This document shows, piece after piece, positions 6,239 to 41,915 of a stretch of DNA of 64,000 nt. Below the pieces are notes generated by a model that saw only the letters and a list, made by a program, of their open reading frames with translations, was not told the DNA's origin and ran no database searches. Source of the DNA: Minisyncoccia bacterium (GTDB lineage: Bacteria; Patescibacteriota; Minisyncoccia; SW-4-49-11); the NCBI GenBank assembly GCA_044356725.1, contig JBIKVS010000005.1:7876-71875 (forward strand), written 5' to 3'. The position numbers and the translations under genes are program-made. How positions within the stretch are numbered: position 1 is the first letter of the stretch; the number at the start of each line of letters is the position of its first letter.

Positions 6239-6479
6239 AATAAAACTATAGTAAATTATAACAAAATTTTTCTTTTCGGTCAAATTTTTATAAGTATTTT
6301 TGCTTTAATGTCCTCCTTTCTACCTACGGAAGATAAATGGAGGAGGTGGCACGAAGTGCCGGTGGTGGACTGAGTTTAAATTCCCCTCTCTGCCTACGGT
6401 AGATAAATTGAGGGGTGGACTGCGTAAGCAGGACGGGGTGGAAATACACTTTATCCACCCTCTCCCCTACTACAATATC

Positions 6480-7748: not shown

Positions 7749-7965
7749 ACAAAAAATATGTTTAAAAAATATGATATGGAATATAGATACCAATCATATA
7801 CATACTTAGTATAAACGACATCTATTGACCACATTGTCAAATATAATAACATATCAACCTAAATTTGTCAAGCTTTAATAACACCGATTGAAGGTGTCTA
7901 TTCTGTCCTCCCTTGGGGGAGGTGGCACCGTAGGTGACGGAGGAGGACTGAGCTAATTCCCCTAA

Positions 7966-9018
7966 TTATTCATTATCTTTCAAAAATTCTTTGATCTGTT
8001 TATCAAAATCAGATTCAAACAGCCTATCTTGCACAATTCTATATTTTTCAAATTGAGTTTCTGCATAAAGTTTAGCCTCCTCACTACTAATTTTACCTGC
8101 ATTGATAAGTATATCTCTATCATTAAATTCCAAAAAAGAATCAAGCCGCCTACTCCAATCCTCCATTGTCATAGGGATATTTCTCTCAGCCTGTAGCTCC
8201 GCATAATCAAGATACATAGAAACTATTCTTTCCAAAAAATTTATTTCCTTTTCTGTAAGATAATTTTTCGCAATACTTACATCATATTTTTGAATTTTAC
8301 CATTTGGAGCATCCAACCAGCTAGTAAGCCCCATATTTTCTTTATCAGCATTAGCTCTTTTTACAATCAATTCAGGAGCTGTATGTCTATGCACCGCATA
8401 ATGCAATTTATTTTGTACAATTTGGAAAAACTTAATAGTAGTAGAAGCAGAAGAATCATAATCAACACTAGTTGCATAAATATCCGTCACTTTTTGATAA
8501 AACATTCTTTCACTAAGCCTAATTTCTCTAATCTTTTGTAATTGTCTTTCAAAAAACTCTTTATCAAATTGATTAGCTTGCTTTAACCTTTCACTATCCA
8601 TAGCCCAACCCTGAATAGTATAATCTTTTACTATTTGTCTTGCCCATTTACGAAATTGTACAGCTCTGTCATTTTCTATCTTGAATCCAACTGCGATAAT
8701 AGCTTGGAGATTATAATGGTCTATATTCCTTTTTACTTCTCTTATACCTTCTCTTTGAACTATCAAGTATTGCTTGATAGTTGCTGAATCAATTTCTTTT
8801 TTTTCTACCAAAGTAGCAATATGCTGTTGTATAGCTTGCACAGATACCCCATACATTTCCGCCATCATTTTTTGAGTCATCCAGATATTTTCATCTTCAT
8901 ATCTGACCTCTATACTTTCCGAATCATCTCCACTCGAAGATACAAAAGTCAAATACTGAGCCGTACTTGCCTGAATAAGCTCCGCTGCAGATTTTTGCTT
9001 TAGTGTTTTTTTGGGCAT
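7966..9018 (-). CDS. RhuM-family protein (putative DNA-binding/virulence-associated)
   Basis: Conserved RhuM blocks: YNLQAIIAVGFKIENDRAVQFRKWARQIV, YQKVTDIYATS.DYD, KLHYAVHRHTAPELI. Paralogous to 43215-44222 and to the N-terminal half of 44785-45762. Confidence 0.6.
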   Translation of the reverse strand: MPKKTLKQKSAAELIQASTAQYLTFVSSSGDDSESIEVRYEDENIWMTQKMMAEMYGVSVQAIQQHIATLVEKKEIDSATIKQYLIVQREGIREVKRNIDHYNLQAIIAVGFKIENDRAVQFRKWARQIVKDYTIQGWAMDSERLKQANQFDKEFFERQLQKIREIRLSERMFYQKVTDIYATSVDYDSSASTTIKFFQIVQNKLHYAVHRHTAPELIVKRANADKENMGLTSWLDAPNGKIQKYDVSIAKNYLTEKEINFLERIVSMYLDYAELQAERNIPMTMEDWSRRLDSFLEFNDRDILINAGKISSEEAKLYAETQFEKYRIVQDRLFESDFDKQIKEFLKDNE

Positions 9019-10968: not shown

Positions 10969-11187
10969 ACTAATCTGTCCAGCCTGCTTTTAGGCTGGAT
11001 ATTTTTATTTATATACTACCTTATTTACCTAATACTTCCCCTAAAAAATCCCCTCTTGAGGGGTGGACAGCTTCGCTGGACGGGGTGGATAATTAGTAAA
11101 AATATCTCCAAATGGAGAAAAAATCCAGATATTTGTCTTGCTCTATTCTATCCTGCAAGATAGCATATTGTAGTTGTACGTATTCAA

Positions 11188-15197: not shown

Positions 15198-18100
15198 TTA
15201 TTTCACAATTTCTCGCTCTTCGGGGGTGAGTTGGTATAAGTCCATTACGAGTTCGTCAATTTCGGCTTCGAGGTGGATTGTGTCGCCATCTTTATTATAT
15301 TTTTTGGCTTCTAGAATTTGGTCTACTAAAGTTTGAATTTTATTAACCATATTTTCATTGGTTTCTGAGATTTTAGGGATAGGTATTTTTTCAAGAAATA
15401 TTTTTTTATATCTATAACCAGTTTCTCCTAGTCCTCCTCCAGCATAATATTTTTTAAAAATATAAGTGACAAAGTTTGAATTTAATAAACCACAAATATA
15501 TTTAATATTATTACCTGTAATCAAAAAAGTAGTAGCCTCACAATATAACTCACCCTTATCAAAATAAAATCTTGGCTCTCTCACAATTTCTGAGTACACC
15601 ACCTTCTCCTTTTCAAATTCGCCCATATAAGCACAATCTCTGAGATTATACTTTGTTTTACCTTTATCACCTCTTTTTGAAAGTTTTGGCTCATATTGAT
15701 TTAGGTGATTTTTTATAGCAGGATACCCATCTATTTGGATTGATGGCACACCTTTATATCCATTATGTGTAGTAATAAGGTATAATCCACTCTCTTCATA
15801 TCCATATCTTTTTATATCTCTTCCTCGTAGTATTAGCTTGATTATCTCTTCACTTTTTGGATCTTCTTTGATTAGTCTTGTTCTGGTCTCTTCATCAATG
15901 ATAAAGGCTTCATTTAGTCCTGTTAGAACTCCTCTATAAATATTTACATCCCAATTTTTGAGTGGTTTACCAAGCTTTTCAATTTTTTCTTTGAGGGCTA
16001 TTTCAGCTTTAGAGCCTATAAACCAAGTGTCTTTGGAAAGTTTATCTATATTTAATGAGTTTTTAGTAATATATTCAGTCAGGTTGTCTCCTTCTTTGAA
16101 ATCATTTTTGAAATGTATAGCTTGGAGTTGGTATTCTTGGGGAGTTCCTTTTTTAGCTAGATAAATATTGGTGTCTACTGTGGCTGATTTGAAGACTTTG
16201 AAGCCTCCAAAATCAATAAGTTGTAAGGGTATGGTATGATCGGCAAAATATCCCCTCAAAGCTTCGCCATAGCCTGCCCGCATCCATTTATTGGAGGTTA
16301 TGTAGCATAATATTCCGTCTTTTCGTAGTAAATCAAAACCTCTTTCATAAAATAAGGCATAAATATCTCCTGTAGATTTGAAAGTTAGATATCCCTCAGA
16401 TTTATAGGCTTTACTTATATATTCTGGGATGAGTTTTTTGTTTTGCAATTGTATATATGGCGGATTTCCAATTACTATGTCAAATCCTTCCGTGACTCCA
16501 AACATCCACTCTGGATCGAACCAGTCTGTGGCTTGATGAATAAATGGCTCCCAGTCTGCAATTTTTTTTGACATAATGCTACTGAATAATTTATCATATT
16601 TTTTTGTTAATTGCTTTTGAATTGATACAAATTGAGTTTTCAAACTTTCTTTTTCAGTATGTTCATTAAAAAATCTAGCTCTTAATGATTTTAATTTTGC
16701 AATTAATACTTCAATTTCTGGATCAGATAATTTACCTTGTCTAGTATTATTATCTAGGGATAATAAAGTGTTAGCGGATACAAATTTGAAGTCTAGGTTT
16801 GGGAGGGCTTCTATTCCCCTATTTTCTTTATTTTCTTGTATTTCTTGGTCAACTATTAAGGATAGGAAAAACCTTAGTCTAGAGATTTCTACGGCTGATT
16901 CTTGTATATCTACTCCGAATATACTAGTTTCTATAATTCCTAGTTTTCTTATATAGTCTATAGCTGGGTTAGATCTAAGTTCATTTCTTAGAGTCTCATT
17001 AGGTAATTTAGCTGTCATTAATTCTAGCCATAGGCTATTATCTGGGTCAATTTTTTGTAATATTATGAATATCTGTTGCAATATTCCCATTGGATAAGCT
17101 CCTGATCCACAGGCGGGGTCTAGGATTTTGAGTGTATCAAGGGCATTGATTATTGCTATTTTATTCTCGGGTGAAATATTGGATTCTTTATCAAAATTTT
17201 CAAAGCATAGGTCATCTAATATTTCTTTATTGATAGAAGTTTTATCTGCTAGATATTGTATGATTGTCTGTCTAACCATATATTCTACGATTGATCTTGG
17301 GGTATAAAAACTTCCTGTAGATTTGCGGGCTGTATCCCCTGTTTCTGGGTTTATCTCTCCTAGAAGATTTTCAAAGATTCTTCCGAGCATTTCTGGGTCT
17401 ACTGAGACTTCTACATCGGTAGTGCTATTCTCATCTATGGTAAAGTTATATCTTTCTAAAATTTGGAATATATCTTCAAAAAGAGAGTTATCTATTATTA
17501 GATTATTTTGATGTAATGAATATCCAGAAAAATTATCTAATTCATAGTAGTCTTGATTTATAGCTTCGAATAATCCTCCATTAAGATATGGTATTTGTTG
17601 AGAATACTTCAAACATTGACCTAGTGCATTATCGTCACGAGATCTAATTTTTTTATTAAGCATTTCAAAAAACACTTTTTCTAGTATTTGGTGATAATAG
17701 TCTGTATAATTCTGAACTGCTTTGGTAGAAATTAGTTCATCTGGGATTAAGCCTTTGCCTTGATTGTCTTTTTTGAATTTGAGAAACCAGACAAAAACTA
17801 ATCTTCCAATAAGTCTGACTGCAAAATCTTGATATATCTTGTGTCCTGTAATTGGATCTGTTGATGGTAATTTGAAAGCTGTATCATATTGTGCTTTAGC
17901 TGTTTTAGCTCCGACGAATTTATGAAACCAAGTGGCTATTTCCTTATAAAAGGCTTCGTTGACTTTCTCTACTGAAAAGGCTTCTATGATTTCGGCTAAA
18001 TTGATGTAGTTTAATTGTGAAATTCTATCTAGGAAGGTTTTATTGCTTTGTTCTCTATCTACAAAGTAGGTATATCTTTTGAAATTATTGTATTTTCTTT

Positions 18101-18482
18101 TATCATCTTGAATGTAGTTATAGATAAAGCTAAATCTGAAGTTAAAGTTGGAGTCATAGAATAAAAAGATTCCGTATTCAAATTGTTGTTGATTTTCTCG
18201 GATGAGATTTTTGGCTAAATCGTATTGTGCTTTCTTACCTGTTTTTTCGGATAGACTTCCATTGACTTTGACACTGATAAATCCTATTTTTTTATTATCT
18301 TCTAATACTTTGATTGCATATAAATATGGCTCAGAGAATTGGTTTTTGTCTATATTATATGTATATAATTCTTGCACTTGTATCATTGTGATACCTGGTA
18401 TATGACTGATATACTCTTCAAATGTATTATGAATTGAGTTTTCTGTCTGAGCCTGTATTATTTCTTGTAATAGGTGTTTCAT
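15198..18482 (-). CDS. Eco57I/MmeI-like N6-adenine DNA methyltransferase with TaqI_C-type specificity domain (Type IIG/IIL-like R-M protein)
   Basis: LDPACGSGAYPM (motif I), VIGNPPYIQ (motif IV, NPPY), C-terminal LTGLNEAF...RGRDIKRY target-recognition motif. 1094 aa. Confidence 0.75.
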   Translation of the reverse strand: MKHLLQEIIQAQTENSIHNTFEEYISHIPGITMIQVQELYTYNIDKNQFSEPYLYAIKVLEDNKKIGFISVKVNGSLSEKTGKKAQYDLAKNLIRENQQQFEYGIFLFYDSNFNFRFSFIYNYIQDDKRKYNNFKRYTYFVDREQSNKTFLDRISQLNYINLAEIIEAFSVEKVNEAFYKEIATWFHKFVGAKTAKAQYDTAFKLPSTDPITGHKIYQDFAVRLIGRLVFVWFLKFKKDNQGKGLIPDELISTKAVQNYTDYYHQILEKVFFEMLNKKIRSRDDNALGQCLKYSQQIPYLNGGLFEAINQDYYELDNFSGYSLHQNNLIIDNSLFEDIFQILERYNFTIDENSTTDVEVSVDPEMLGRIFENLLGEINPETGDTARKSTGSFYTPRSIVEYMVRQTIIQYLADKTSINKEILDDLCFENFDKESNISPENKIAIINALDTLKILDPACGSGAYPMGILQQIFIILQKIDPDNSLWLELMTAKLPNETLRNELRSNPAIDYIRKLGIIETSIFGVDIQESAVEISRLRFFLSLIVDQEIQENKENRGIEALPNLDFKFVSANTLLSLDNNTRQGKLSDPEIEVLIAKLKSLRARFFNEHTEKESLKTQFVSIQKQLTKKYDKLFSSIMSKKIADWEPFIHQATDWFDPEWMFGVTEGFDIVIGNPPYIQLQNKKLIPEYISKAYKSEGYLTFKSTGDIYALFYERGFDLLRKDGILCYITSNKWMRAGYGEALRGYFADHTIPLQLIDFGGFKVFKSATVDTNIYLAKKGTPQEYQLQAIHFKNDFKEGDNLTEYITKNSLNIDKLSKDTWFIGSKAEIALKEKIEKLGKPLKNWDVNIYRGVLTGLNEAFIIDEETRTRLIKEDPKSEEIIKLILRGRDIKRYGYEESGLYLITTHNGYKGVPSIQIDGYPAIKNHLNQYEPKLSKRGDKGKTKYNLRDCAYMGEFEKEKVVYSEIVREPRFYFDKGELYCEATTFLITGNNIKYICGLLNSNFVTYIFKKYYAGGGLGETGYRYKKIFLEKIPIPKISETNENMVNKIQTLVDQILEAKKYNKDGDTIHLEAEIDELVMDLYQLTPEEREIVK

Positions 18483-18545
18483 ATATTAGGTTATTACCTA
18501 TAATATTCTCACTTTTATGATATATTGTCAATTTAATATTTTATG

Positions 18546-18656
18546 ATTTCTATCGACAAAAATTGTCGATAGAAATTTATTACCCGCTATATTGGCTTAT
18601 TTATAAGCTTTTTCTATCGACAATTTTTGTCGATAGATTGTCGATAGAAATTATTC
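18546..18656. promoter_or_regulatory. conserved operator-like module with perfect palindrome ATTTCTATCGACAA-AAA-TTGTCGATAGAAAT plus two further half-sites
   Basis: 31-bp perfect inverted repeat at 18546-18576. Second inverted repeat ctatcgacaa-ttt-ttgtcgatag at 18615-18637. Extra half-site ttgtcgatagaaat at 18640-18653. The same roughly 115-bp module recurs at 40965-41080. Confidence 0.5.
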
Positions 18657-20102
18657 ATCTAAAAATTTAGGGTTTAGATAATATCTAGTGTATCGATTCT
18701 CTCCTTGTTTTATTAGAATATCATTTTCAACTAGCATCGTAATTTCATATCGTGCCTTTCTATCATCTCCTTTCTTTTCCATATTATTGAGTTTACAATA
18801 TTCAGGATTTGATAATCCTTTGGCTGGATTATGTTTTAATTCCAAAAGAGCAACTAATTGAGTATCTTTCAATTTATATTTTTTTCTAAACTGAGCCAAC
18901 CAATTATGATCATTTTCCTGAACAAATGCCGATGTAAATAATGTTGTTTTGAATATTTCTCCGTTATTTTCAAATTTTGGCATAGGTAATCCTGAATCTT
19001 TTGTAGCATTTAATATGGTTCGTATTCCTCTACCTCTTGTCTCGGTAATACTATAATCTCGAAGGAATTTAATAAGTAAAGGATTTCTTGATTGTGGTGT
19101 TGCATTATCTATATTCTCTATTGGTACAAGACTTCTACCAGGATTTGCAAATTCTACTCTATCAGAGTAAATATCTATCTGTATTCTAGCGGTACGATTA
19201 GTATAATCTCTATGTGCGATTGCATTAGCTAAGGTTTCACGAATAGCAATTTCGGGAATTGCTAAATATTCTTTTCGTTTCAATTCTGTACTGATTTCAC
19301 TATGTACTGGTAGTTTGGAAATAATAAATTTAAGTGCATTATCAAATTGCTCGAGAACTGTCCCATTGAACTCTTTATCATCAATACTAACTTCCTCAAT
19401 ATTTTGTGATACTTTAGATACTCCTCTATATTGAGTGACTGCTATATTAAATGTAGGTGATCCTATATCTTGTAATGCTTCTTGTTTTGAAAATACTAAT
19501 AGCCCCAATAACGTAGGTTTATTATCTTTAATTACCTGCATCTTAGTTAGAATTTGATTAGGAGTAAAATCTTGATATATATTATATCTTTTTTTATTTA
19601 CTACTTTTATATAATCTAATACTTTTGTATTATCTATTGATTCTTCTATTGAGTTATCTAAAATTTTTAATTCTGCACCTCCTTCATTTGCTAATGCAAA
19701 TCTACGAATATGATCATCTGTTATTTGAGCATTTGTAGTCCCAGCTCTAATTCTTGCTCCTCGAGGGACACCTCGCTTTTTAGAATATATTGGTCGATGA
19801 TATGTAGGAGCTGGAGGTATATAAATTTGTATTATAGAATCTTTTGTAACTTTTACATCAGGAATAATCTCCACATTAAATACTGATTTACATATACTAT
19901 ATACACTCTGTTGTAATGTATCTAAATATTTGTTCTCAATACCATGTATAACACCATTCGTATCTATACCTAAATAGATAGTACCTCCATCTAAATTAGA
20001 AAAGGCTGAAATAGTTTCCCATAAAGCATCTGGTAATTTATCTTTTGTTATGAATTTAAACTCAACTGTGTCAGTTTCTATATTAGGGTATAAAGTATTC
20101 AT
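18651..20102 (-). CDS. AlbA_2 (Schlafen-like divergent AAA) + HATPase_c_4 domain protein (putative DNA-binding regulator/defence-associated)
   Basis: N-terminus TVEFKF...ISAFSNLDGGTIYLGIDTNGVIHGIEN (AlbA_2 signature). C-terminus RETLANAIAHRDY...IDIYSDRVEFANPG (HATPase_c_4). The start overlaps the stop of the upstream PLD-SNF2 gene. Confidence 0.65.
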   Translation of the reverse strand: MNTLYPNIETDTVEFKFITKDKLPDALWETISAFSNLDGGTIYLGIDTNGVIHGIENKYLDTLQQSVYSICKSVFNVEIIPDVKVTKDSIIQIYIPPAPTYHRPIYSKKRGVPRGARIRAGTTNAQITDDHIRRFALANEGGAELKILDNSIEESIDNTKVLDYIKVVNKKRYNIYQDFTPNQILTKMQVIKDNKPTLLGLLVFSKQEALQDIGSPTFNIAVTQYRGVSKVSQNIEEVSIDDKEFNGTVLEQFDNALKFIISKLPVHSEISTELKRKEYLAIPEIAIRETLANAIAHRDYTNRTARIQIDIYSDRVEFANPGRSLVPIENIDNATPQSRNPLLIKFLRDYSITETRGRGIRTILNATKDSGLPMPKFENNGEIFKTTLFTSAFVQENDHNWLAQFRKKYKLKDTQLVALLELKHNPAKGLSNPEYCKLNNMEKKGDDRKARYEITMLVENDILIKQGENRYTRYYLNPKFLDE

Positions 20103-23100
20103 TATTGTTTCTTATTTTCTATTGCAATTATTATATCTACGGATATTTTATCTGTTTCTTGTCTGATATTATTGAGATAATTTTCACTTAAATAGGATTT
20201 TAATTTGGTCAAAATATCTGTAAGTTCATCTATATTTTGAACTTTAGTGATTTTGCGAGCGGTTTCATCTGAAGTTGTTCCATAGGAGATTATATCTTCT
20301 CTGAGTTCTCTTGCGATTGTTTCTAGGTTTTTAGGTATTTGAAAATTATCTAAGTATTTATCTAAGACGGTAAGGGCTTTATCTTGTACGGTTTGGCTGG
20401 ATGTTCTGAGGGGTTTTTTACTTATAAACTTCTTTTGTAATTCTGGGTAATGTTGCCAAAAATTATTAGATAATTCAACAGCTTTATCGTCTGGATTGGC
20501 TTTAATATTATCTATTATTGATTCTATGGTTGGATCTTCTATTGTACTATCTGGTTCATAATTGGTTGATCTTACCTGGAAGGCTTTGCCTTTTTTGAGG
20601 AATACATATAGATTGTCTTGAGTACCTGTTTTGGCTACTTTTATTCTATCTGGTAGTCTTATGATTTTTTGGTATAGTTCTGGATGTTGTGATTGAAATT
20701 CAAAAAATTCTTTTCTAATTTTAGTTAGGAAGCTGGAGCTTTCTTCTTGTTCCGGATTGGTGGTGAGTCTTGTATATAGTCCTGCTGGAGTTGGTTGTTC
20801 GTCTATGTCAAAGATCTTAGCATCTTCTCCTAAGATTGTGTGTATCATAAACATTTTGTTGGTGGCGATTTCTTTGCTTTTGAGAATATTATTTCCTTTA
20901 TCTGTTGGGAAATAGTTATAAATATATAGTTTTTCGAATACTTTTGCACTGAGTCTGTTGATTCTTCCTACTCTTTGGATTACTCTTGTTGGATTCCATG
21001 GGATATCGTAGTTGATGACTATTCCTGCTCGATTGAGGTTGAATCCTTCTGAGATACGATCTGTTCCAAGTATAATATCATAATCATTGGCTTGTTCAGA
21101 TAATGATACTGAAGCGTCAAAATTAGTTTGAATTTTTTTATTTATATTATTATCTATACCTTTGTTAATTACTAAAACTCTGTTTGGGAAATACTTTTCT
21201 AATAATGGCTTAATGTATTCCAATGTATCTAAAAACTCTGTAAAAATTACTGTTTTACGATTTGGTTCTTTGTGTAATGACGATTTTATGGATTCTATTA
21301 GTTTTTGGGCTTTTGGATCTTGGTTGACTTGATTTAGCGATAATTCTTCAATTTCACTTTTGATGTGTTTTAATAATTCTATATCTGCTTTGATATTATT
21401 GATAAAGTCATTTTTTTGTAAGAATGCTTTACTGTATAGGTTGTATACTGATTTCTTAGTTTTAACTTTATTTATATCTTTTTTTGATTCTTGTTCTAAT
21501 CTTTCGATTTCTTTTCTAATTTCATTGAAATCTAGGTCTTCATCATCTTGGAATTTATCGAATAATTCTCTAGCGAAGATGTATTTTCCTGTTTCATCTA
21601 TAACTTTATCTACAAATTCGTATAATTTGAGTGTATTTATAATACTTTGATAAAATGAACCGAAGGAACTTTCAAATCTTTTGACTAAATGTCTAGTCAT
21701 AAAGTCAAAAAGATTGTTCTGAGCTTGGTATTCAAAGTTTTCTGCAAGTCCTGTTATTTTCTCGGGGGACTTTTTATAATTACCAGCTTCATATACTACT
21801 GGTCTATATATTGCTCCAGTGAATTTGCCTTCTCTTCCAAAATATCTTTGTATAACATTGTCATAAAATTCAGATTGCTCAGGGTCTAGTTCAAATAACT
21901 GAGCTTCTGGATCTTGAACTTGTGACATATCTGGGATGTCTTTTTGATAGACTGGATCTTGTTCTAAATCTTTACGATTTCTTCGGATTAGGACGGGTTC
22001 TATAATTGATCTTACTTGATCTGATAGGTATCTAGCTCTAATATTGAGATGTTCTATGTCTATTTTGTCTACTTTTTTTCCTATCAAAGACTGATAATCT
22101 TGCAATGCTCTTTGTTGTTTGAGAGGGTCTGGCGATTTATAATTTTTACGGATGTCTGAGATTCTCTTGAAATCATTTTCAAATACTCTGAATTGGTATT
22201 CTAAATTACCATCTATTGAAATCCTTGATTGTTTTGGTATATCAAATAACTTAACCATTGAGAAAAAGTCAGATGGTGAGTTGTTAAAAGGGGTTGCTGT
22301 TAATAAAATTACTTTGCGGTTTTTACAAAGAATATTGAGGGCTTCATATTGTGAGGTATTTTCATTACGAAATCTATGTGCCTCATCTACTAAAACATAT
22401 TCATATTTGTCTCTTAATTTGTCTGATTGGTATTTTTCTAAAAAGCCTTCTACATTTCCTGATGAAATAATATCCCAATGCTTAAAATCAAAGGTTTCTT
22501 TATAATTTGCCCAACCACTTGTATGTGCTTCTCCAATTAGTCCTGGTGGGCTGACTATTATTCCTTTGCCTAAGCCAAGTTCTCGGATTATCATACTGGA
22601 TATAACTGACTTCCCTAGCCCTACAACATCGGCAATAATTACTCCATTATAATTCTCTATTGCTGATAGTGCTTGTTGTACGGCATCTAATTGATATTGA
22701 TATGGAGTAAATCCATTTGCTCTTAGTACATCTTGTATCCCTGATGAAACTTCTTGTTGACTTTTTGACTTGATATATGTCTCCAAAACCTTCATATATG
22801 CTTCATAGGGAGTTATATTGGCAACTTGGGTTTCGTCTTGTATGGTTTCAAATAATCTTTGTTTAATGACATCATTTTCGGTAATTTCAATAGATGTGTC
22901 CCATAGGGTATCAAAATATTTTATACTTTCTTCTACTGGATGATTATCTAACAGTTGTACATTATATTCATTCTGAGTGTTTAATCCAGCTTGTGTGAGA
23001 TTACTGCTACCTGTAATTACTACACCTTTATTGACTATATTATTTTCTAATTCAAAAATGTATAATTTAGCATGATTTGGATCTAAGGTTTTGCGAATTA

Positions 23101-23500
23101 TTAATTTGTTTTCCTGTATCATTTGTAAAAAGAACTTTACTTGTTCATAAAACTCTTTGGTATCATTATTTTTATGATTTAATGACTTTTTAATGGATTG
23201 TATATAATCGTCTATATGTTGCTCTTTACTTTTTTTGATATAACCTATTCTTTCTCTCTCTTTGCGGGACTCGGGAGGAGTGACACCAAATTCCACTACT
23301 TTTTGTATGTCACTATCTATATTTAGTCCTACTAGAATCTTGAGTTGTATATTAGGTTTTTTCATTAAGCTATCGAGTAAAACCTCTATCCCGGAAAAAT
23401 AAAAAAATCCAACTAAAAATTTCAGCTCTTTACTTTGTGAAATAAGCTCTTTTACTCTAGTTTCAAGAGTTAAATTTTTATCTGAATTAGAAATAAACAT
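20102..23500 (-). CDS. PLD-family nuclease (HKD) fused to SNF2-family helicase
   Basis: N-terminus HAKLYIFE...GSSNLT (HxK...GSxN PLD motif). Helicase motifs GLGKS (I), DEAHRFRN (II), LLTATPFNN (III), QRVGRINR (VI). 1132 aa. Confidence 0.75.
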   Translation of the reverse strand: MFISNSDKNLTLETRVKELISQSKELKFLVGFFYFSGIEVLLDSLMKKPNIQLKILVGLNIDSDIQKVVEFGVTPPESRKERERIGYIKKSKEQHIDDYIQSIKKSLNHKNNDTKEFYEQVKFFLQMIQENKLIIRKTLDPNHAKLYIFELENNIVNKGVVITGSSNLTQAGLNTQNEYNVQLLDNHPVEESIKYFDTLWDTSIEITENDVIKQRLFETIQDETQVANITPYEAYMKVLETYIKSKSQQEVSSGIQDVLRANGFTPYQYQLDAVQQALSAIENYNGVIIADVVGLGKSVISSMIIRELGLGKGIIVSPPGLIGEAHTSGWANYKETFDFKHWDIISSGNVEGFLEKYQSDKLRDKYEYVLVDEAHRFRNENTSQYEALNILCKNRKVILLTATPFNNSPSDFFSMVKLFDIPKQSRISIDGNLEYQFRVFENDFKRISDIRKNYKSPDPLKQQRALQDYQSLIGKKVDKIDIEHLNIRARYLSDQVRSIIEPVLIRRNRKDLEQDPVYQKDIPDMSQVQDPEAQLFELDPEQSEFYDNVIQRYFGREGKFTGAIYRPVVYEAGNYKKSPEKITGLAENFEYQAQNNLFDFMTRHLVKRFESSFGSFYQSIINTLKLYEFVDKVIDETGKYIFARELFDKFQDDEDLDFNEIRKEIERLEQESKKDINKVKTKKSVYNLYSKAFLQKNDFINNIKADIELLKHIKSEIEELSLNQVNQDPKAQKLIESIKSSLHKEPNRKTVIFTEFLDTLEYIKPLLEKYFPNRVLVINKGIDNNINKKIQTNFDASVSLSEQANDYDIILGTDRISEGFNLNRAGIVINYDIPWNPTRVIQRVGRINRLSAKVFEKLYIYNYFPTDKGNNILKSKEIATNKMFMIHTILGEDAKIFDIDEQPTPAGLYTRLTTNPEQEESSSFLTKIRKEFFEFQSQHPELYQKIIRLPDRIKVAKTGTQDNLYVFLKKGKAFQVRSTNYEPDSTIEDPTIESIIDNIKANPDDKAVELSNNFWQHYPELQKKFISKKPLRTSSQTVQDKALTVLDKYLDNFQIPKNLETIARELREDIISYGTTSDETARKITKVQNIDELTDILTKLKSYLSENYLNNIRQETDKISVDIIIAIENKKQ

Positions 23501-23647
23501 TTAGATGTATTTATATTTATATATTATAGCATATTTTGATGTTTTGTCATATTTAATCATTAATTTATAATATAGTATTCTTTACTTTAAATTATAATAA
23601 AAGTATAATATTGATAAAATTGACTTACATTAATATTTTATAATAAA

Positions 23648-25159
23648 GTGATTCCTAAGACTAAAAATCAGCTTATACATAAGATTAGAAGGACTATATT
23701 AATAGATATCGAGTCTCAAAAACATAGTGTTCAGCTCAAAGATCTAATTAATGATGATTCTACTGTTGTTTTATTAAATGAGGCTGGTATCTTCACTATT
23801 TCTGATTTAGTGACAATAGATATATTCAAGTTAAGTTCTATTGATGAGGGTGTTCTTACTGAAATCAATAGTCAAATAAATCTTTTATCAAAAGGATTAG
23901 ATTCTAATCTGGTTATCCCTGAAAGGCAGCAAGATATTCATCCAATCAATCAAATTGAACTAAATTCTCTTGAAGAGGTTATCAATTCTATTGAAGAAAA
24001 AGATAGAAATATAATAATAGAAAGGTATGGATTGTTGGGCGAAAAGAAAAAACTGAACGAGATAGGTGAAGATTTGGGGGTATCTCGTCAAAGAGTTCAT
24101 CAAATTGTAGAGAGAAATTTAAATGATATAAATAAGAAATATGTTCCCAATCACTTTATAGAGTCTGAAAATGTATCAAAATTAGCAGATCAGGTTATAC
24201 CTATTGATGCTATTGGTAATCTTTCGAATACTTATAGTAATATTGGTTTGATTGAATTTATTATTGATGCTTTCCCATCTTTGTGGATTGTCATTTATAA
24301 TGATAAGAACTTAAAGACCGATATTTTGATTAACAAGGATTTAATTAAATCTTTGCTGAATAAGATTTCTAGGGTTAAGAGCTTTTTGAAGCAACAGAAA
24401 GAATTTGTATCAATCCAACAGATCTCTGAATTATTTGAAATCAACATTGAGGTTATAAAAATAATTGATAATACTGTGATTAAAAATGAAACTATTGCCA
24501 TTAAAACAAATAAGAATATTCCTTTTGGGATGTTTGGGATAATTTATGATGTTATTAAATCAGCTGGTAAGCCATTGAAAATCCAAGAGATTGTAAAAGT
24601 GTCTGGGTTAACTCAAAATCAGGTTAGAAGTAGACTGGATAGAGATAATGGGAAGTTTTTCATTAATGTTGGTAAAAGTATTTATGCTTTGTCAGAGTGG
24701 GGCTTTTCAAAGCTACAAACTAATGATTTGATCTATAATTATATTAAGGAGTCGAATGAACCGAAATCGATTATGGAAATTCTCAGGTTTGTACGTATGC
24801 ATAAAAGGATTAATGACTCTTCTATTATTGCTGCTATATCAATAGATCCTAGAATAGTAACTATTAGACCAAAAACATACTCCCTAATAGAATGGGGTGC
24901 TAAACCTTATCATACTAGATCTGGTACAAAATATGCTATTAATTGTTATGATGCTCTTATATCTATATTAAGTGAAGTGGATACAGATTTAACCATAAGT
25001 GAAATTTGTAATTTGTTAAATGATAAATATGGAGATGATGTAACTTCTTCTCAGACAACAATTTACGCTAACTTAAAGAAATTAAAGGAAAGTGGGAGGA
25101 TTGAATTTATTATTAATTACGGTAAACAATATTATAAATATAAATTAATTAAGGTATAG
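23648..25159 (+). CDS. putative regulator: RNAP alpha-CTD-like HhH + sigma70 region-4-like HTH + three winged-helix-like repeats
   Basis: LNEAGIFTISDLVTIDIFKLSSIDEGVLTEINSQI (alphaCTD-like). IIIERYGLLGEKKKLNEIGEDLGVSRQRVHQIVERNL (sigma r4-like). Repeated ...Y(A/S)L(S/I)EWG motifs in C-terminal tandem wH-like units. Divergent from the PLD-SNF2 operon. GTG start. Confidence 0.4.
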   Translation: MIPKTKNQLIHKIRRTILIDIESQKHSVQLKDLINDDSTVVLLNEAGIFTISDLVTIDIFKLSSIDEGVLTEINSQINLLSKGLDSNLVIPERQQDIHPINQIELNSLEEVINSIEEKDRNIIIERYGLLGEKKKLNEIGEDLGVSRQRVHQIVERNLNDINKKYVPNHFIESENVSKLADQVIPIDAIGNLSNTYSNIGLIEFIIDAFPSLWIVIYNDKNLKTDILINKDLIKSLLNKISRVKSFLKQQKEFVSIQQISELFEINIEVIKIIDNTVIKNETIAIKTNKNIPFGMFGIIYDVIKSAGKPLKIQEIVKVSGLTQNQVRSRLDRDNGKFFINVGKSIYALSEWGFSKLQTNDLIYNYIKESNEPKSIMEILRFVRMHKRINDSSIIAAISIDPRIVTIRPKTYSLIEWGAKPYHTRSGTKYAINCYDALISILSEVDTDLTISEICNLLNDKYGDDVTSSQTTIYANLKKLKESGRIEFIINYGKQYYKYKLIKV

Positions 25160-25211
25160 GTGGAAATAAAGTTTTTTTTAGGAAGTTTTGGTCAAAATTT
25201 TTGGAGGAAAG

Positions 25212-25247
25212 AAAAAAGCCTCTGCGATGCAGGGGCTTGTGGGGTTT
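25212..25247. terminator. hairpin terminator module (bidirectional)
   Basis: aaaaaagcctctgcgatgcaggggcttgtggggttt. On the minus strand the stem is followed by a T7 run. The leader aaatttttggagNaaagaaaaaagcc is shared with 41121-41168. Confidence 0.5.
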
Positions 25248-25270
25248 AGTCGATCTAGATATTTTGTGGT

Positions 25271-25456
25271 TCATATATACTCTATAGAGTGAATATAAGA
25301 TCCATCACTTAATTGATTCATTTCTTCACATATACTCTTTACCTGTTCGACGGAATCATATTCAATAATTTTTCCCTTACCTTCACTACCAGTTCCTATG
25401 TGTTTCCAGTTAACCCGGGCTTTGATTTTGTTGTGCTCCTGCATATTAGGATCCAT
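25271..25456 (-). CDS. small conserved protein (61 aa), member of a 3-copy family in this window
   Basis: MDPNMQEHNKIKARVNWKHIGTGSEGKGKIIEYDSVEQVKSICEEMNQLSDGSYIHSIEYI. Has its own terminator. Paralogues at 42540-42735 (pseudogene) and 41916-42074 (GC-rich). Confidence 0.4.
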   Translation of the reverse strand: MDPNMQEHNKIKARVNWKHIGTGSEGKGKIIEYDSVEQVKSICEEMNQLSDGSYIHSIEYI

Positions 25457-25539
25457 TTTTTAGATGAAGCTTTTGTTTACTGAATACTTATAGCATAATA
25501 TTACTACTTTGTACATAGCTTAATTCTTCTTCGATAATA

Positions 25540-25800
25540 TTAGTCCACCCTCCGCCTACTGGTACTCCCTCCGAAGGGAGACATTAGCTCAGTCCACACC
25601 CGTCGCAAATGTCCTCCTCCCCCGTCGCAAATAGGATTTGCTCCTTGAAAATCCAGGGTTTCCAACACTCGGTCTTTGACCTCTTTGCCTTCCTCCACGG
25701 TAAAACTACCGTTTTCCCGACCCCTTTCCCAAAGGCTAAAGCCTTTTTTAGGTACTCCCTCCAACTACTTACGGCAGTTAAAAAGGGAGACATAAATACA
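25540..25800. repeat. GC-rich modular intergenic repeat cluster (modules A-B-C)
   Basis: gtccaccctcc..tactccctccgaagggagacattagctcag / ccgtcgcaaat(g/a)ggatttgctcc / ttgaaaa(c/t)ccacggtttccaacactcggtctttgacct... shared with 41630-41900, 42150-42530, 42815-43150, 44350-44750. Confidence 0.8.
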
Positions 25801-28125: not shown

Positions 28126-31100
28126 TTACCTCATCACCTTATCCATCAAATGTTGATAGGTATCCACTACATCATATATTACAGAGTCATGTCCTAGAGC
28201 TTCAAAATGCTTTTTAGCATAGTCAATTTTTAATTTTTCCACCGTTTTGAGTTGCATACTACTCAAAGAACCTTTGGTCTCAGCAATAAAATAGATATGT
28301 TTAATATTTCTCTCATAGAATACTATTGCCCAATCTGGATTATAATTGCCAACTGGAGTCGGGATAAAGAATCCTCTTGGTAATTTTGCATAAACTAAAA
28401 CATTTTCATTGTTTTTTTCTAAATCATCAGCAAATCTATATTCAATTTCAGAATCTGTCTTAACATAAGAATAAATATGCCTCTTAACCTCTTGAATGTT
28501 TTTACCTAATTCACCTCTCAGATTATTGATAGTAAACACATCATCCTCATATATCTGACCTGTCTGATTATAAGTAATATGATTGATTAGAGTAGTAGCT
28601 TTTTGTTCTTGAATAATTCTTGAGACCTCTTTAATAAAGTGTTCTGGATTTTCTTGGAATAGCATAAATTTATGTGGACTAATCCTAGATAAAATTTTAG
28701 CTACGGTTTTTCGTGTAATATTAGCTTCTTTGGCAATTTCAGCTATTAAGTCATATTTCAAATCCCCCAAAACATTTTCTGCTTTATGCATTTGGGAAGA
28801 TAATTTAGTCATAGTAGTTTTGGTTTTTACATATTCAGTTCGTATTTCATTGACTTGCTCTCCTTTTGTCACTTGAATCATCACTCTTTGGACATTTAAC
28901 TCTCTATCAATAGCCTTTATGCTCACATCTACCAATTCTTCAGTATCAAAAGAAACCGTATAACTTGTTTTGACCTTCAATTTAGACCATAGATTTTGAA
29001 ACTCCTGTTTATAAAAGTTATCATTAGGCTTTATATTCTCTTCTTTAATATTTTGTTTTCTATCATTTTCTGTAGCTTTATAAACACTAGTATTGTATAC
29101 ACTCATCAGAATTTCAGCCAAATGCTCTTTATAAGGCTCTAAACTTTCAGGAACAGACCAATCTCCCGTACTAATACCTTGTACTAAAGTATCAGTAATA
29201 TGATAATTCTCATCAATATAATTTTCTTTGTTTAACTTCATAATTAAGTCCATAGCATCTTTAGAAGTCATAGTCATACTATCTTCACCATCTTTAGACT
29301 TTAGCAATTTACCTTCAAATAAAGGAACTTCTACTATAATTGGACGATGCGAGAGCGAGTCAAAAATTTCTCTTTGTAATTCATTGGCAAAAGTATCATA
29401 AGATTCATTAGCAATAATAGTCACCGTATTAACATCAAAAAATCTATCATCTAAGGCACTAAAATCCATTCTCTCCCCATATTGATTAACCGCAATTCTC
29501 AATCCTCGTCCAATTTCCTGCCTTTTAGAAATACTAGAACTGCTATGTCTCAAAGTACAAATTTGGAAAATATTAGGATTATCCCAACCCTCTCTCAAAG
29601 CAGAATGTGAGAAAATAAATCTAGTAGGTTCAGACAAACTCAATAATCTCTCTTTTTCCTTCATAATCAAGTTATAGGCATCAATATCATCACTCCCACC
29701 TTCGCTTTGTTTATCCTTAGAATCAATAGCTCGACCTTTTTTATCAATCGAAAAATACCCATTATGAATTTTAGAAACTTCCCATTGATTCAAATACTGC
29801 TCATATTCAGGAGCTAATAAATTCTGCTGAGACACCGCTCGGGTATATTCTCTTTCAAAAATTTCCTCATATTCAGAGCGAATAATATTCCCCGCCTCAT
29901 CATAAGCCCGATATTTAGACACTTCATCAATGAAAAACAAAGTCAAAACTTTAATCCCTAAAGCATACAATTCCTGCTCCTTCTCCAAATGCGAAGCAAT
30001 CGCCTCCCGAATTTGAATCGTACGAATATGTTTCTCATCAATATTCCCCATCACTTGTCCCACTTCCAAACTAACTCCATTAGTAAAGCTAACCGTATTA
30101 GTCAAAGCATTGATTTCCTTGACTACAAAACCTTGATACTGAGCTAATTCTCCAGAAATATCATACAAATTATCCCCTTCTCTAATTTTTTTCAAAACCT
30201 TTTTGATACCATTACCTTGTTTAGTCTCAATCTCCATCTGAATAGAAGCATTCGGATATTCTCTCGTGCTAATATTAATCCTATCCAAAAATAGATAACT
30301 ATTGGTACCAGTACTTCCCTTCGCCTCAATTCCCTTGACCCGAATTTTCTTCACCAACTTTTTATTATAGGCATCAATCGCATCCAGCCGATAAATTTTA
30401 TTAAATTCCTCTTTGTGAGTAGCACTATATCTGACAATAAATAAAGGACTAAACTCCTGCAACATAGACTCGGCAGTTTTCCCAAATCTCTGTGGTTCAT
30501 CAATAATCAAAATCGGATTAGTCTTGCGAATCAAATCAATTGGTTTTTCGGAATTAAGAGCGTCAATTTCTTGAAAAATCTTCCTATTATCCTTACCTCT
30601 ACTCCCAAAAGCCTGATAATTCATCACAATAACCTCAATCTCACTACTTTGGACAAATTTTTTAATATTCACCAGATTAGATGAATTCTTAGTATCATAA
30701 GCAAAATAACGAAGCTTTTTGCCATATAATTCTTGAAAATGATCCGATGTAATCTGAAGTGACTTCAAAACCCCCTCCCGAATTGCAATAGACGGCACCA
30801 TAATAATAAATTTATTCCAGCCATAAGCTCGATTTAATTCAAACATAGACTTGGTATAGACATAAGTCTTACCTGTACCCGTCTCCATCTCAACTGTAAA
30901 ATTATAGCCACCTTCCAGTTTTTGACTCACTGGTAAACCTTGCTCTTTTTGAATTTTTTGGAGATTAGATAAAAGTTTAGAATAATCCAAATCTAACCTT
31001 CTATTCGCAAACATATACTCATCCACCCATTGCTGGTCTAATTGTCCTTTATTATATAATTCCCGACCTAAGACTTGCTTCCCAGACTCTTTATTCTGCC

Positions 31101-31170
31101 CATCAAAAACCCTAATCAAAGCCTCTGTCGCTTCTATTTGGTATTGTTGTTGTTTGAAATGCAGTTTCAT
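28126..31170 (-). CDS. res: Type III restriction enzyme Res subunit (helicase + PD-(D/E)xK endonuclease)
   Basis: TGTGKTYVY (motif I), IIDEPQRF (motif II), C-terminal PDWAIVF...IYFIAETKG nuclease motif. 1014 aa. Confidence 0.8.
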   Translation of the reverse strand: MKLHFKQQQYQIEATEALIRVFDGQNKESGKQVLGRELYNKGQLDQQWVDEYMFANRRLDLDYSKLLSNLQKIQKEQGLPVSQKLEGGYNFTVEMETGTGKTYVYTKSMFELNRAYGWNKFIIMVPSIAIREGVLKSLQITSDHFQELYGKKLRYFAYDTKNSSNLVNIKKFVQSSEIEVIVMNYQAFGSRGKDNRKIFQEIDALNSEKPIDLIRKTNPILIIDEPQRFGKTAESMLQEFSPLFIVRYSATHKEEFNKIYRLDAIDAYNKKLVKKIRVKGIEAKGSTGTNSYLFLDRINISTREYPNASIQMEIETKQGNGIKKVLKKIREGDNLYDISGELAQYQGFVVKEINALTNTVSFTNGVSLEVGQVMGNIDEKHIRTIQIREAIASHLEKEQELYALGIKVLTLFFIDEVSKYRAYDEAGNIIRSEYEEIFEREYTRAVSQQNLLAPEYEQYLNQWEVSKIHNGYFSIDKKGRAIDSKDKQSEGGSDDIDAYNLIMKEKERLLSLSEPTRFIFSHSALREGWDNPNIFQICTLRHSSSSISKRQEIGRGLRIAVNQYGERMDFSALDDRFFDVNTVTIIANESYDTFANELQREIFDSLSHRPIIVEVPLFEGKLLKSKDGEDSMTMTSKDAMDLIMKLNKENYIDENYHITDTLVQGISTGDWSVPESLEPYKEHLAEILMSVYNTSVYKATENDRKQNIKEENIKPNDNFYKQEFQNLWSKLKVKTSYTVSFDTEELVDVSIKAIDRELNVQRVMIQVTKGEQVNEIRTEYVKTKTTMTKLSSQMHKAENVLGDLKYDLIAEIAKEANITRKTVAKILSRISPHKFMLFQENPEHFIKEVSRIIQEQKATTLINHITYNQTGQIYEDDVFTINNLRGELGKNIQEVKRHIYSYVKTDSEIEYRFADDLEKNNENVLVYAKLPRGFFIPTPVGNYNPDWAIVFYERNIKHIYFIAETKGSLSSMQLKTVEKLKIDYAKKHFEALGHDSVIYDVVDTYQHLMDKVMR

Positions 31171-36200: not shown

Positions 36201-36973
36201 CTATAGGAATGGGTTATACCGATGCTCTTAGTACATTACAAACAGAATCTAATACCTTTATCCCACAAGCTCCTGTGAGTTATTCAGACAAAACAGGAGA
36301 ATATGTATATACACTTGATCTTAGAAATGAAGAAAATTTAAATCTTATCTTAAATAAAGCGGTGCAAGAAACAGAAGTGGAAGCTCAGGGAGAAGTCCCT
36401 ATTCCTAACATAAAAGGATTAGATTACTTAACATTTGAGGATACACTTAAAGCCTCATATCTTGAGGGCAAAGCATATTCAGATAATCAAGGACTTATGC
36501 AGTTTTTAGCTAATATGGAAAATAGTTTAATTGCCAAAGACATAAATAATGCAGCTAAAGATAGACCTAATATGAGTCTTAAATATACAGATGAGGCTGG
36601 ACGAATTAAAGGCTATATGCTTTCCTGGGAGGGACATTTAAATGATAGAAATATTCAATACGATATGCCAAATTTATCTAATGAACCTTGTATTTATATT
36701 ATGGATCTTGCAACAGATTTAGAAAGTAGTATGGCTGGGGGGAGGTTGATACAAGGTTTTATAGAGTTGTATAGACAGAATTATCTCGATAAAGGAAATC
36801 TTATGCCAATTTTCACTCAAGCAAGGGAAGCTACTTCATATAAAATTATAAAAAAACAGTTAGATAGATTAGGTCAAAGTACTGGATTTGCTTTTGAACT
36901 GGTAGAATTACCTACATATAAAGTTGGAGATGATGTAATGTATCCTGTTATTATAAGTCCAGTCTCAACATAA
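33266..36973 (+). CDS. large repeat-containing protein (about ten 39-aa tandem repeats plus an 800-aa C-terminal domain of unknown function)
   Basis: Repeat unit EFSISEEIIQSPEVQEAAVKGIIFILQQGDIYTVKEIKE. 1235-aa ORF. Confidence 0.55.
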   Translation: MENERYFRSQTEEEIKEFDELQAKKDEIILLLKSGDIEGVKQIQQEFALSDDIMQSPEVQEAAIEGFIDNLKYAEIRSAKEIQQEFSISDEILQSSEVQEAAKEGIIYRLKKGNIDTVKKIKEEFSISEEIIQSPEVQEAAKEAIIYRLKNGDIRSAKEIQQEFSISDEIVQETAIEGFIDNLKYAEIRSAKEIQQEFSISDEILQSSEVQEAAVKGIIFILQQGDIYTVKEIKEEFSISEEIIQSPEVQEAAVKGIIFILQQGDIYTVKEIKEEFSISEEIIQSPEVQEAAVKGIIFILQHGNIDKAKEIKEEFSISEEISQSPEVQEAAIKGIIFILQYGNIDKAKEIKEEFSISEEISQSPEVQEAAIKGIISLLKIYMLEEYPHAAIGITREIIDEFNVSEEIIQQTPKIQEVAKEGIISQLKRGDIEIAKKIQEVFFVPIGEDMKNMIEMSTLFSTSTTTSFQTISINLDTYTEEQLATMWSKAQEYESWEDEHTVKAPFEAGVEIFGYKRMLQYIKREGLSLHDAVHTFEGVIDLYNVSELGESEFYGHILQQVMMDTREYDEGNAHQHFNRIVQTMNKDIAGVLSKAEQYNEVQRLQDLILYFNNPQAVFSSWSDLKRYSEIEQLLGQTEILDELKALKAEGKEKLYTYIETLAFHPDSKVNMQSVMQFWRDPDAFLAADASHTPYEIHNRKKPSNYIDIPNLDLTASELRDALVEGKMDGLSVFTPLEIRYTIPIEDIKSEPFPDLVNKALGSSKKGIAGEARNPRKLFNELGKLLKPHGVGVIEYIQGQSLPEDIHIDQQIQDLLYNPEFGMKKLEVKARDFIAKISQKSDPEGAIAGDDTVNCMPFGDGKNTLYTFNPNTSQFVIRAVKGDGKERTIAQSVLTKDIDVQKPVPYITQQLEHTGGHLESVLSENLVINAPVYLACDNIEVAPNYSDERYKQIIEAIYKDFFREYMTKYSSTQNLDPTKVPIGMGYTDALSTLQTESNTFIPQAPVSYSDKTGEYVYTLDLRNEENLNLILNKAVQETEVEAQGEVPIPNIKGLDYLTFEDTLKASYLEGKAYSDNQGLMQFLANMENSLIAKDINNAAKDRPNMSLKYTDEAGRIKGYMLSWEGHLNDRNIQYDMPNLSNEPCIYIMDLATDLESSMAGGRLIQGFIELYRQNYLDKGNLMPIFTQAREATSYKIIKKQLDRLGQSTGFAFELVELPTYKVGDDVMYPVIISPVST
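33420..34560 (+). repeat. 117-bp tandem repeat array inside the CDS (some adjacent units identical)
   Basis: 33901-34017 is identical to 34018-34134. The flanking units are progressively diverged. Confidence 0.8.
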
Positions 36974-40881: not shown

Positions 40882-40964
40882 AAAGCTATGATCTTTTATA
40901 GAGATTTATATAATTACTAATTCATATTATACCACATTTTTGCCTTTTTGTTTAGGGTAGTGAG

Positions 40965-41080: not shown

Positions 41081-41142
41081 TTTAGTCCTGTTTGAGTTCT
41101 AAATTATGGCAAATTCGCTATAATTAAAATTTTTGGAGTAAA

Positions 41143-41168: not shown

Positions 41169-41187
41169 TGGGGTTGAGAGAAAATTC

Positions 41188-41900: not shown

Positions 41901-41915
41901 CTATGTATGAAGGAA

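Follow-up and report, generated by a model that had tools for sequence, protein, structure and literature searches.

A lineage-specific palindromic repeat array as the proposed target of an adjoining Schlafen-GHKL-winged-helix protein in a Minisyncoccia defence island

Phased repeats lying beside the gene of their binding protein, often just downstream of it, are familiar from NTPase-coupled plasmid partition and replication, as in sopB-sopC of F, parB-parS of P1, parC of R1 and the Rep iterons. In the heptad arrays of the omega repressor and ribbon-helix-helix (RHH) type, a short unit occurs in direct and inverted orientation and in variable number. Prokaryotic Schlafen proteins were only recently shown to include anti-phage tRNases, and the HisKinase-HTH class makes up approximately 19% of that family (PMC13056530). 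Proteins combining Schlafen, minimal-kinase and winged helix-turn-helix (wHTH) domains have been reported from over 1000 taxa beside BREX-related loci, where they were interpreted as RNase effectors that serve as a back-up (PMC12839542). A Schlafen-GHKL-Argonaute fusion assembles under ATP into an active tetramer, and its nuclease is kept off in a filament templated by nucleic acid (bioRxiv 10.64898/2026.05.29.728809). In the literature searched, which treats the helix-turn-helix (HTH) as a possible sensor, no DNA target was found for the HisKinase-HTH class. Here, a repeat module was analysed in a 64-kb stretch of contig JBIKVS010000005.1 from a Minisyncoccia bacterium, hereafter the window, within which all motif counts were taken. 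The module follows the gene of a Schlafen-GHKL-wHTH protein (site A, 18546-18656) and recurs at a second defence promoter (site B, 40965-41082). The preferred reading, assigned a probability of about 0.62, is that the module is a five-site array recognised by the wHTH of the adjoining protein, which in this lineage would have become palindromic and been duplicated onto the second promoter. By sequence comparison it differs from a local operator and has a wider distribution: a pairing of gene and array is conserved among Schlafen-GHKL-wHTH defence proteins, and the module is a palindromic form of it specific to this lineage.

The gene of the proposed binder is located as follows:

18651-20102, minus strand: gene for a 483-residue protein with Schlafen (AlbA_2), GHKL ATPase (HATPase_c_4) and winged-helix domains, the proposed array binder (Pfam PF04326, 9.7e-15; PF13749, 2.2e-22).

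The Schlafen nuclease motif Ex4ExK is found at E9, E14 and K16. Across 60 homologues no variation occurs at E9 and E14 and hardly any at K16, and the Mg/ATP residues E289 and N293 of the GHKL domain are likewise invariant. The AlphaFold2 model (predicted local distance difference test score, pLDDT, 88) places a wHTH at the C-terminus, spanning residues 413-476 with pLDDT of approximately 85-94 and composed of H1 (413-424), H2 (432-438), H3 (446-459) and a wing (463-476). In Foldseek comparisons the N-terminus matched Schlafen folds, the middle the CA (ATP-binding) domains of histidine kinases, and the C-terminus MarR/ArsR folds, the best overall match being the uncharacterised 3lmm. The wHTH assignment comes from the structure model alone, Pfam having returned no HTH family for the C-terminal 89 residues. 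Carrying the nuclease motif, the GHKL domain and a C-terminal HTH, the protein is a prokaryotic Schlafen of the HisKinase-HTH class. Its three-domain architecture, its conserved Ex4ExK and GHKL motifs and its setting in a defence island, beside an HKD-SNF2 helicase and a PglX-like methyltransferase, fit the published BREX-linked descriptions (PMC13056530; PMC12839542; bioRxiv 10.64898/2026.05.29.728809). Unlike in those accounts, a target array located at the gene's 3' end and a candidate specificity residue can be proposed here. With both nuclease and ATPase motifs conserved, a defence effector equipped with a DNA-binding domain is a likelier identity for the protein than that of a plain transcription factor.

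Site A consists of five exact copies of the 11-mer TCTATCGACAA / TTGTCGATAGA, arranged as two perfect palindromes and one extra site. The elements of the two sites are:

18638-18648, minus strand: extra direct site of site A, an exact TCTATCGACAA on the gene strand, beginning 2 bp past the Schlafen stop codon.
18613-18637: stop-proximal palindrome of site A, TCTATCGACAA-N3-TTGTCGATAGA, perfect over 25 bp, centre 18625, at about -130 from the predicted methyltransferase start.
18595-18608: inverted repeat GCTTAT-N2-ATAAGC (GCTTAT-TT-ATAAGC) inside the 39-bp spacer between the palindromes of site A.
18549-18573: core of the promoter-proximal palindrome of site A, TCTATCGACAA-AAA-TTGTCGATAGA, perfect over 31 bp (18546-18576), centre 18561, at about -66.
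40976-41000: promoter-proximal perfect palindrome of site B, centre 40988, at about -69; also found ahead of type I hsdM genes in strains L003 and L076.
41065-41075 and 41054-41064, minus strand: two direct 11-bp sites of site B.
41040-41050: decayed arm of the distal palindrome of site B (4/11 mismatches).

Read along the minus strand, the stop codon TAA of the Schlafen gene (18653-18651) is followed by 2 bp, the direct site, a palindrome, the spacer and the second palindrome, then by 17 bp, the promoter elements TTGACA-18-AATATT and the methyltransferase ATG at 18482. The palindrome, second inverted repeat and extra half-site reported by the first-pass annotation were thus confirmed by direct reading, as was a copy, put there at about 85% identity, upstream of the second SNF2 gene: site B is 84% identical to site A over 107 nt. 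The likeness breaks off sharply at the outer sites, the palindrome centres lie 64 bp apart at both, and the spacer block TATAAGCCAATA of site A is kept in site B and in the relatives L028 and L025. Counted with at most one mismatch, the 11-mer occurs 11 times in the window, compared with 1.28 +/- 0.98 times in shuffled sequence, and none of 100 shuffles reached 11. Site A is unchanged in strain contigs from lake metagenomes, and the region upstream of the PLD-SNF2 gene itself (23500-23648) holds no copy of the module. One exact TTGTCGATAGA at 52005-52015, in very AT-rich DNA within an acyltransferase gene (51667-52806), is probably a chance match.

The principal evidence comes from relatives of the gene. 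Eleven homologue lineages were compared (the window, L028, L025, L031, L036, L074, L029, L034, L035, L038 and L075), of 46-92% identity and mostly from the candidate phyla radiation. In 11/11, three to seven repeats with the core TATC[G/T]AC and a phasing of 10-12 bp start 0-40 bp past the stop codon; five sites, one helical turn apart, is the most common count, and the genes around the array are unrelated from locus to locus. When 7-mers occurring three or more times within 120 bp were sought blindly, 10/11 of the arrays were recovered, against a background of about one such cluster per 4 kb. The closest relative, L028 (92% identity), has the architecture of site A with four of its five sites, the unpaired extra site included, changed together to TCTAACGACAA. 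One of its palindromes is changed on both arms, the old form is retained in one arm of the proximal palindrome, and the second palindrome is no longer symmetric. The concerted change from TCTATCGACAA to TCTAACGACAA (L028 3780-3885) counts in favour of the preferred reading; it could have arisen by gene conversion between the repeats or concern a position tolerated by the protein. In L025 (67% identity) the trio of helicase, Schlafen and methyltransferase genes is preserved, and the array consists of four sites (three direct, one inverted), the TATAAGCCAATA block and two more direct sites. In the remaining eight lineages, at 46-53% identity, the gene has only unrelated housekeeping genes around it, and an array of direct repeats only still follows its stop codon:

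L031: repeat unit TTCTATCGACC, arrangement 2+3.
L036: repeat unit TCTATCGACAT, arrangement 2+3.
L074: repeat unit TTATCGACAC, arrangement 3.
L029: repeat unit TTATCTACA, arrangement 1+4.
L034: repeat unit TTTA[C/G]CTACA, arrangement 4.
L035: repeat unit CTCTATCTACC, arrangement 7.
L038: repeat unit TTA[T/C]CTACA, arrangement 5.
L075: repeat unit TTTATCTACAA, arrangement 3+2.

At some loci the gene after the array has the same orientation; at three (L029, L034 and L038) it is convergent, and in L074 and L075 only 2-20 bp separate the array end from the next start codon. Across these loci the array is, by its position, a conserved companion of the 3' end of the Schlafen gene and not of a defence promoter, and the palindromic, dimer-like symmetry is a peculiarity of the window lineage. 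Two parts of the earlier interpretation are revised accordingly by these observations: dimeric operator symmetry does not hold as a general feature, the relatives having purely direct repeats at 10-12 bp phasing, and a dedicated operator at the defence promoters is not supported as stated, the conserved partner of the array being the Schlafen 3' end and the next gene being convergent in three relatives.

In their 10-12 bp phasing, their place beside the gene of the proposed binder in 11/11 lineages and the ATPase domain of that binder, the arrays resemble partition centromeres and iterons. Unlike those, they lie in chromosomes of small-genome bacteria with housekeeping neighbours and have no ParA, ParM or Rep partner, the window encoding no Par or Rep domain, and they belong with an unrelated protein family. 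The direct and inverted units in variable number recall the omega heptad arrays and suggest cooperative binding, one unit per repeat; the predicted fold here is a winged helix rather than that of the omega type, and the unit is 10-12 bp.

Variation of the core base is matched by variation in the protein. The core is TATCGAC in six lineages and TATCTAC in five; residue 451 is Arg or Lys in 6/6 of the G-type lineages and Asn or Thr in 5/5 of the T-type. In a neighbour-joining tree of the proteins the G and T states are interleaved, giving three independent sister contrasts (residue 451 and base in brackets):

L036 (R, G) against L075 (N, T), which are syntenic.
L031 (K, G) against L035 (T, T).
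L074 (K, G) against L029 and L034 (N, T).

For L074 (Lys, hence G) and L075 (Asn, hence T) the motif type was forecast from the protein sequence with the DNA still unread, correctly in both cases. Six of 516 alignment columns separate the two groups, and two of these, 451 and 464, fall within the wHTH. Residue 451 lies within H3 (446-459) of the AlphaFold2 model, and thus in the predicted recognition helix; residue 464 is in the wing. Contact of guanine by Arg or Lys is the commonest base-specific contact in recognition helices of such domains. That the winged helix of the Schlafen protein itself reads the repeats is therefore well supported, if not proven, by the adjacency of gene and array in 11/11 lineages together with the covariation of the G/T base with residue 451. 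On the same two grounds the AlbA_2/HATPase_c_4 protein, named as an obvious candidate by the first-pass annotation, appears by far the best candidate binder.

In the window, both copies of the array stand before defence genes. The window is chromosomal, with rpoB, tRNAs, a DEAD-box helicase gene, dus, ksgA and an ABC-F gene, and a GC content of 32%; close homologues of its proteins bear names from the candidate phyla radiation, and its defence island extends from approximately 8 kb to approximately 46 kb. Locus 1 runs from the PLD/HKD-SNF2 helicase gene through the AlbA_2/HATPase_c_4 gene and site A to the type IIG/PglX-like methyltransferase gene. Locus 2 runs from an intrinsic terminator through site B and its promoter to HKD-SNF2, DUF4391 and the type III Mod and Res genes, with a foreign plus-strand gene inserted. 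The features concerned are:

20102-23500, minus strand: PLD(HKD)-SNF2 helicase gene, forming with the Schlafen and methyltransferase genes a trio also found in L025 and L028.
15198-18482, minus strand: type IIG/PglX-like methyltransferase gene of the Eco57I family (Pfam Eco57I 3.2e-39, TaqI_C; PADLOC REase_MTase_IIG 1e-161).
18502-18531, minus strand: predicted sigma70-like promoter of the methyltransferase gene, TTGACA-18-AATATT (10/12 consensus matches, by consensus match only).
41148-41169, minus strand: intrinsic terminator of an upstream open reading frame (ORF) of 122 residues.
40926-40954, minus strand: predicted promoter of the SNF2-DUF4391-type III restriction-modification (R-M) operon, TAAACA-17-TGnTATAAT (10/12 matches, extended -10; kept in L003 and L076).
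37642-40881, minus strand: HKD+SNF2 helicase gene, the first downstream of site B.
37017-37637: DUF4391 gene of locus 2.
31179-33116: type III Mod gene of locus 2.
28126-31170: type III Res gene of locus 2.

The terminator precedes site B, which therefore lies at the start of a transcription unit. Relative to the predicted starts, the palindrome centres lie at about -66 and -130 in site A and about -69 and -133 in site B, the nearer palindrome ending 17-21 bp upstream of the -35 element at both loci. The two promoters are non-homologous and the intervening DNA is unrelated; matching distances under these circumstances argue for a functional relation of the palindromes to both promoters. Sigma70-like promoters had been annotated between module and start codon at each locus, and both are indeed present, with the coordinates of the second -10 off by a few bases (the promoter spans 40926-40954). 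The earlier placement of the module upstream of both loci holds for site B; in locus 1 the module is internal, between the AlbA_2 stop codon (18651-18653) and the methyltransferase ATG (18482).

Related strains retain the promoter and sites of the site-B type with other genes behind them. In L003, a sister strain labelled Paceibacterota with flanks 90-93% identical, a single palindrome occupies a terminator-promoter cassette of the site-B type that drives a type I hsdM gene; in L076, a further strain, one direct site and a palindrome lie at such a promoter before type I genes. The cargo in both is type I hsdM, then DUF3800, then hsdR, in place of SNF2-DUF4391-type III R-M, so that the site-B promoter and its sites were retained while the defence cargo was swapped. 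The cassettes span 40881-41200 in the window, 5380-5600 in L003 and 430-650 in L076, and homology ends just past the -10 element, which looks like a defence hot spot that brings its own promoter. It had also been proposed that the shared DNA could template recombination between sites A and B. No direct support for this was obtained: the longest identical stretch is approximately 29 bp and strain contigs contain no deletion variant, although strains differ in how many sites they carry at the site-B promoter (two, three, or four plus one decayed).

Taken together in the preferred reading, the Schlafen protein would occupy all five copies in site A and the four that are intact in site B. In this lineage the sites would have been turned into one extra site and two palindromes separated by six helical turns, a short distance upstream of the methyltransferase promoter, and a second copy of the array would have been placed at an equal distance upstream of the SNF2-DUF4391-type III operon promoter. 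Since the sites are palindromic in the window lineage, the protein probably binds there as dimers; the 64-bp spacing of six turns would let two dimers pair, in line with ATP-driven GHKL oligomerisation. Docked on the chromosome, the protein would link the transcription of adjacent R-M genes to its own state. Control of the methyltransferase and SNF2/type III promoters is a plausible lineage-specific role. We lean towards a bound array acting as a roadblock, repressor or insulator, blocking read-through and promoter access, rather than as an activator, because in relatives the arrays sit in short gaps before co-transcribed genes or between convergent genes. Such an arrangement would suggest a Schlafen effector wired to R-M promoters in small-genome bacteria with very few regulators, and the array offers a simple sequence signature by which similar wiring could be spotted elsewhere. 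A defined target array with an apparent specificity residue makes the role of the HTH directly testable and provides a first testable answer as to its DNA target.

Several observations weigh against this reading. Positions -66 and -130 are not those of a classical repressor, and the promoters are consensus matches only. With convergent next genes in three relatives and no room for a promoter in L074 and L075, promoter control cannot be the ancestral function. The whole site-B intergenic region is approximately 90% conserved between strains, so that retention of its palindrome is not by itself evidence of selection. The covariation is drawn from 11 loci and three contrasts, and the remaining four of the separating columns lie outside the wHTH. 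Comparison of the window with L028 gives no clear wHTH substitution that would explain the T-to-A change of the site (TCTATCGACAA to TCTAACGACAA), only I464F and R470K being unique to L028. Finally, 34 distant homologues from IMG/VR (23-29% identity) have no 3' array; at some of these loci other repeated 7-9-mers occur upstream of the gene.

Palindromes beside R-M promoters, common to several defence loci, are also known as the C-boxes of R-M C proteins and as BrxR/CapW operators. Neither locus has, within or beside it, the small HTH ORF or Pfam match of a C-protein gene directly downstream, and in place of two boxes within about 35 bp that overlap the promoter there are two palindromes 64 bp apart, upstream of -35. 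Similarly, no WYL domain occurs among the island proteins, as would be found in the wHTH-WYL regulator whose gene adjoins its inverted-repeat operator in BrxR/CapW systems. Unlike in C-protein and BrxR operators, the array follows the gene of its binder, and the proposed binder carries a predicted RNase and an ATPase.

In an alternative that we regard as unlikely, the array would not be an operator at all. Here the repeats would form a docking or sequestration array that holds copies of the Schlafen RNase inactive as a DNA-templated oligomer, with any effect on neighbouring promoters incidental; release, and with it ATP-driven tetramerisation, would be triggered by events such as the degradation or remodelling of host DNA by a phage. 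It would account for an array that follows the 3' end of the gene even where no promoter comes after it, for the modal five sites one helical turn apart, and for the conservation of the nuclease and ATPase motifs, and it agrees with the related Schlafen-GHKL protein in which a templated filament is the off state of the nuclease and an ATP-driven tetramer the on state (bioRxiv 10.64898/2026.05.29.728809). The argument is, however, pure analogy, with a protein that has an Argonaute core in place of a wHTH; it leaves the second copy at a defence promoter, at matching distances, unexplained, and the arrays of two distant loci, L202 and L208, surround their own promoter and look like ordinary autoregulation. 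A more specific and slightly more doubtful version would make the array a chromosomal scaffold, a DNA "antidote" to the Schlafen RNase, on which about five protomers, docked one helical turn apart beside their own gene, stay inactive until host DNA is lost or remodelled during infection and they are freed to form ATP-driven, tRNA-cleaving tetramers. If this were true, infection would be sensed in a new way, through the integrity of a specific self-DNA site, and the array copies at R-M promoters would tie the switch to first-line defence.

It is improbable that the array serves as the operator of another DNA-binding protein, such as the 503-residue protein with a sigma70 region 4 and multiple wHTH domains (23648-25159, plus strand) or a regulator encoded elsewhere. 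Several HTH-like domains are present in the 503-residue protein, whose gene is situated in the island between the two loci, and site B has no adjoining Schlafen gene. Against this, the arrays follow the Schlafen gene in 11/11 lineages and covary with a helix of the Schlafen protein itself, and a homologue of the 503-residue protein is absent from the called neighbours at most of the 11 loci. Neither it nor a 1235-residue repeat protein of the island obtained comparative support as a binder, and no convincing small HTH or RHH ORF was found near the modules.

Still less can be said for a selfish or neutral repeat, whether a miniature inverted-repeat transposable element, a res- or att-like recombination site or the functionless relic of a duplication. 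The sharp ends of similarity do resemble terminal inverted repeats, the island is a mosaic in which 300-bp repeats flank a 17-kb segment, and the site number at the site-B promoter is strain-variable; but only two copies exist in 64 kb, no target-site duplication is present at their ends, and a core motif conserved across 46% protein divergence argues for function. A site-specific recombination site was rejected separately, the window having no recombinase domain and the 3-bp spacer fitting neither the 2 bp of serine nor the 6-8 bp of tyrosine enzymes. Palindrome scans of public genome and metagenome collections gave, apart from the sister strains, chance-level matches in unrelated organisms, and a plasmid search with the module DNA gave no match. 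The least credible proposal, a terminator, attenuator or processing site formed by RNA or single-strand hairpins between the Schlafen and methyltransferase genes, could draw on 11-bp stems, on a T-rich tract flagged as terminator-like after the proximal hairpin at site B and in L003, and on the L028 palindrome with both arms changed, but fails in that no T-tract follows the hairpins of site A, the unpaired L028 site changed in concert while the second L028 palindrome lost its symmetry, eight relatives carry direct repeats unable to form hairpins, and a strong terminator already precedes site B. An Rfam scan of the window returned tRNAs only.

Beyond the 11 lineages, a reverse search of IMG/VR with three tandem TATCTAC units gave 119 loci, among which the related L202 (2474 bp) and L208 (9180 bp) place the units beside a 500-residue Schlafen-GHKL homologue of 24% identity. 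Three to four tandem copies of TTTATCTACG lie upstream and one near the ribosome-binding site, so flanking the gene's own promoter, with tRNA genes adjoining; the layout looks like one typical of autoregulation, and these arrays count in favour of the preferred reading. Upstream of a Schlafen-GHKL homologue on the Lactobacillus iners plasmid NZ_CP049224.1 (L230 300-680) there are 14 copies of TAATCGTG in clusters of two to three at 11-bp phasing, split by GGCTAT-AA-ATAGCC palindromes that recall GCTTAT-TT-ATAAGC of site A, and an 11-bp-phased AATC array lies upstream of another in the Staphylococcus aureus SCCmec record NZ_AP024743.1 (L229 380-620). Both homologues are annotated "RNA-binding domain-containing protein". 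These two arrays might be plasmid replication or partition elements (iterons or centromeres) and were therefore not counted as evidence. In the high-GC actinobacterial records L007, L016 and L017, matches to TATCGACAA-N3-TTGTCGATA lie directly upstream of genes that begin like Fur-family regulators; these palindromes are probably an unrelated operator that shares the core by chance.

The remaining observations concern the construction of the island. Direct repeats of approximately 90% identity (25240-25539 and 42517-42816, also 25616-25762 and 41654-41800) flank a 17-kb segment with GmrSD, type III R-M genes, SNF2 and site B, which suggests that the island was built by recombination at them. 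The DNA at 25196-25556 is 97% identical to that just upstream of the L003 palindrome and includes a 61-residue ORF (25271-25456), of which a truncated second copy lies at 42548-42676. The 503-residue protein, encoded divergently from the PLD-SNF2 gene, has a sigma-70 region 4-like HTH followed by several winged-helix-like segments and gives a weak match to the sigma-like MzaA of the anti-phage system MZA. The 1235-residue ORF (33266-36973, plus strand) is inserted between the DUF4391 and type III Mod genes on the opposite strand; the N-terminal third of its product consists of about nine tandem 39-residue (117-bp) repeats, with faint HTH_11 and HEAT matches. GC-rich dispersed repeats (CCACCCCTC...GAGGGG, and the hairpin-like TCCTCCC...GGGAGGA) stand out in this genome of 32% GC and occur at the island borders and beside RhuM genes, at 41600-44750, 25540-25770, 47060-47120, 58350-58470 and 61880-61925, with inverted copies at 6375-6460, 7899-7961 and 11045-11095. 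Three RhuM-family genes bracket the island (7966-9018, 43215-44222 and 44785-45762), one of them fused to a Fic domain. Further to the right, direct duplications of 93-98% identity lie approximately 3.5-5.2 kb apart (55745-56044 and 59666-59965, 58054-58353 and 61561-61860, 53311-53364 and 58498-58551) and include Vut_1 transporter genes and a shared promoter-like 54-mer.

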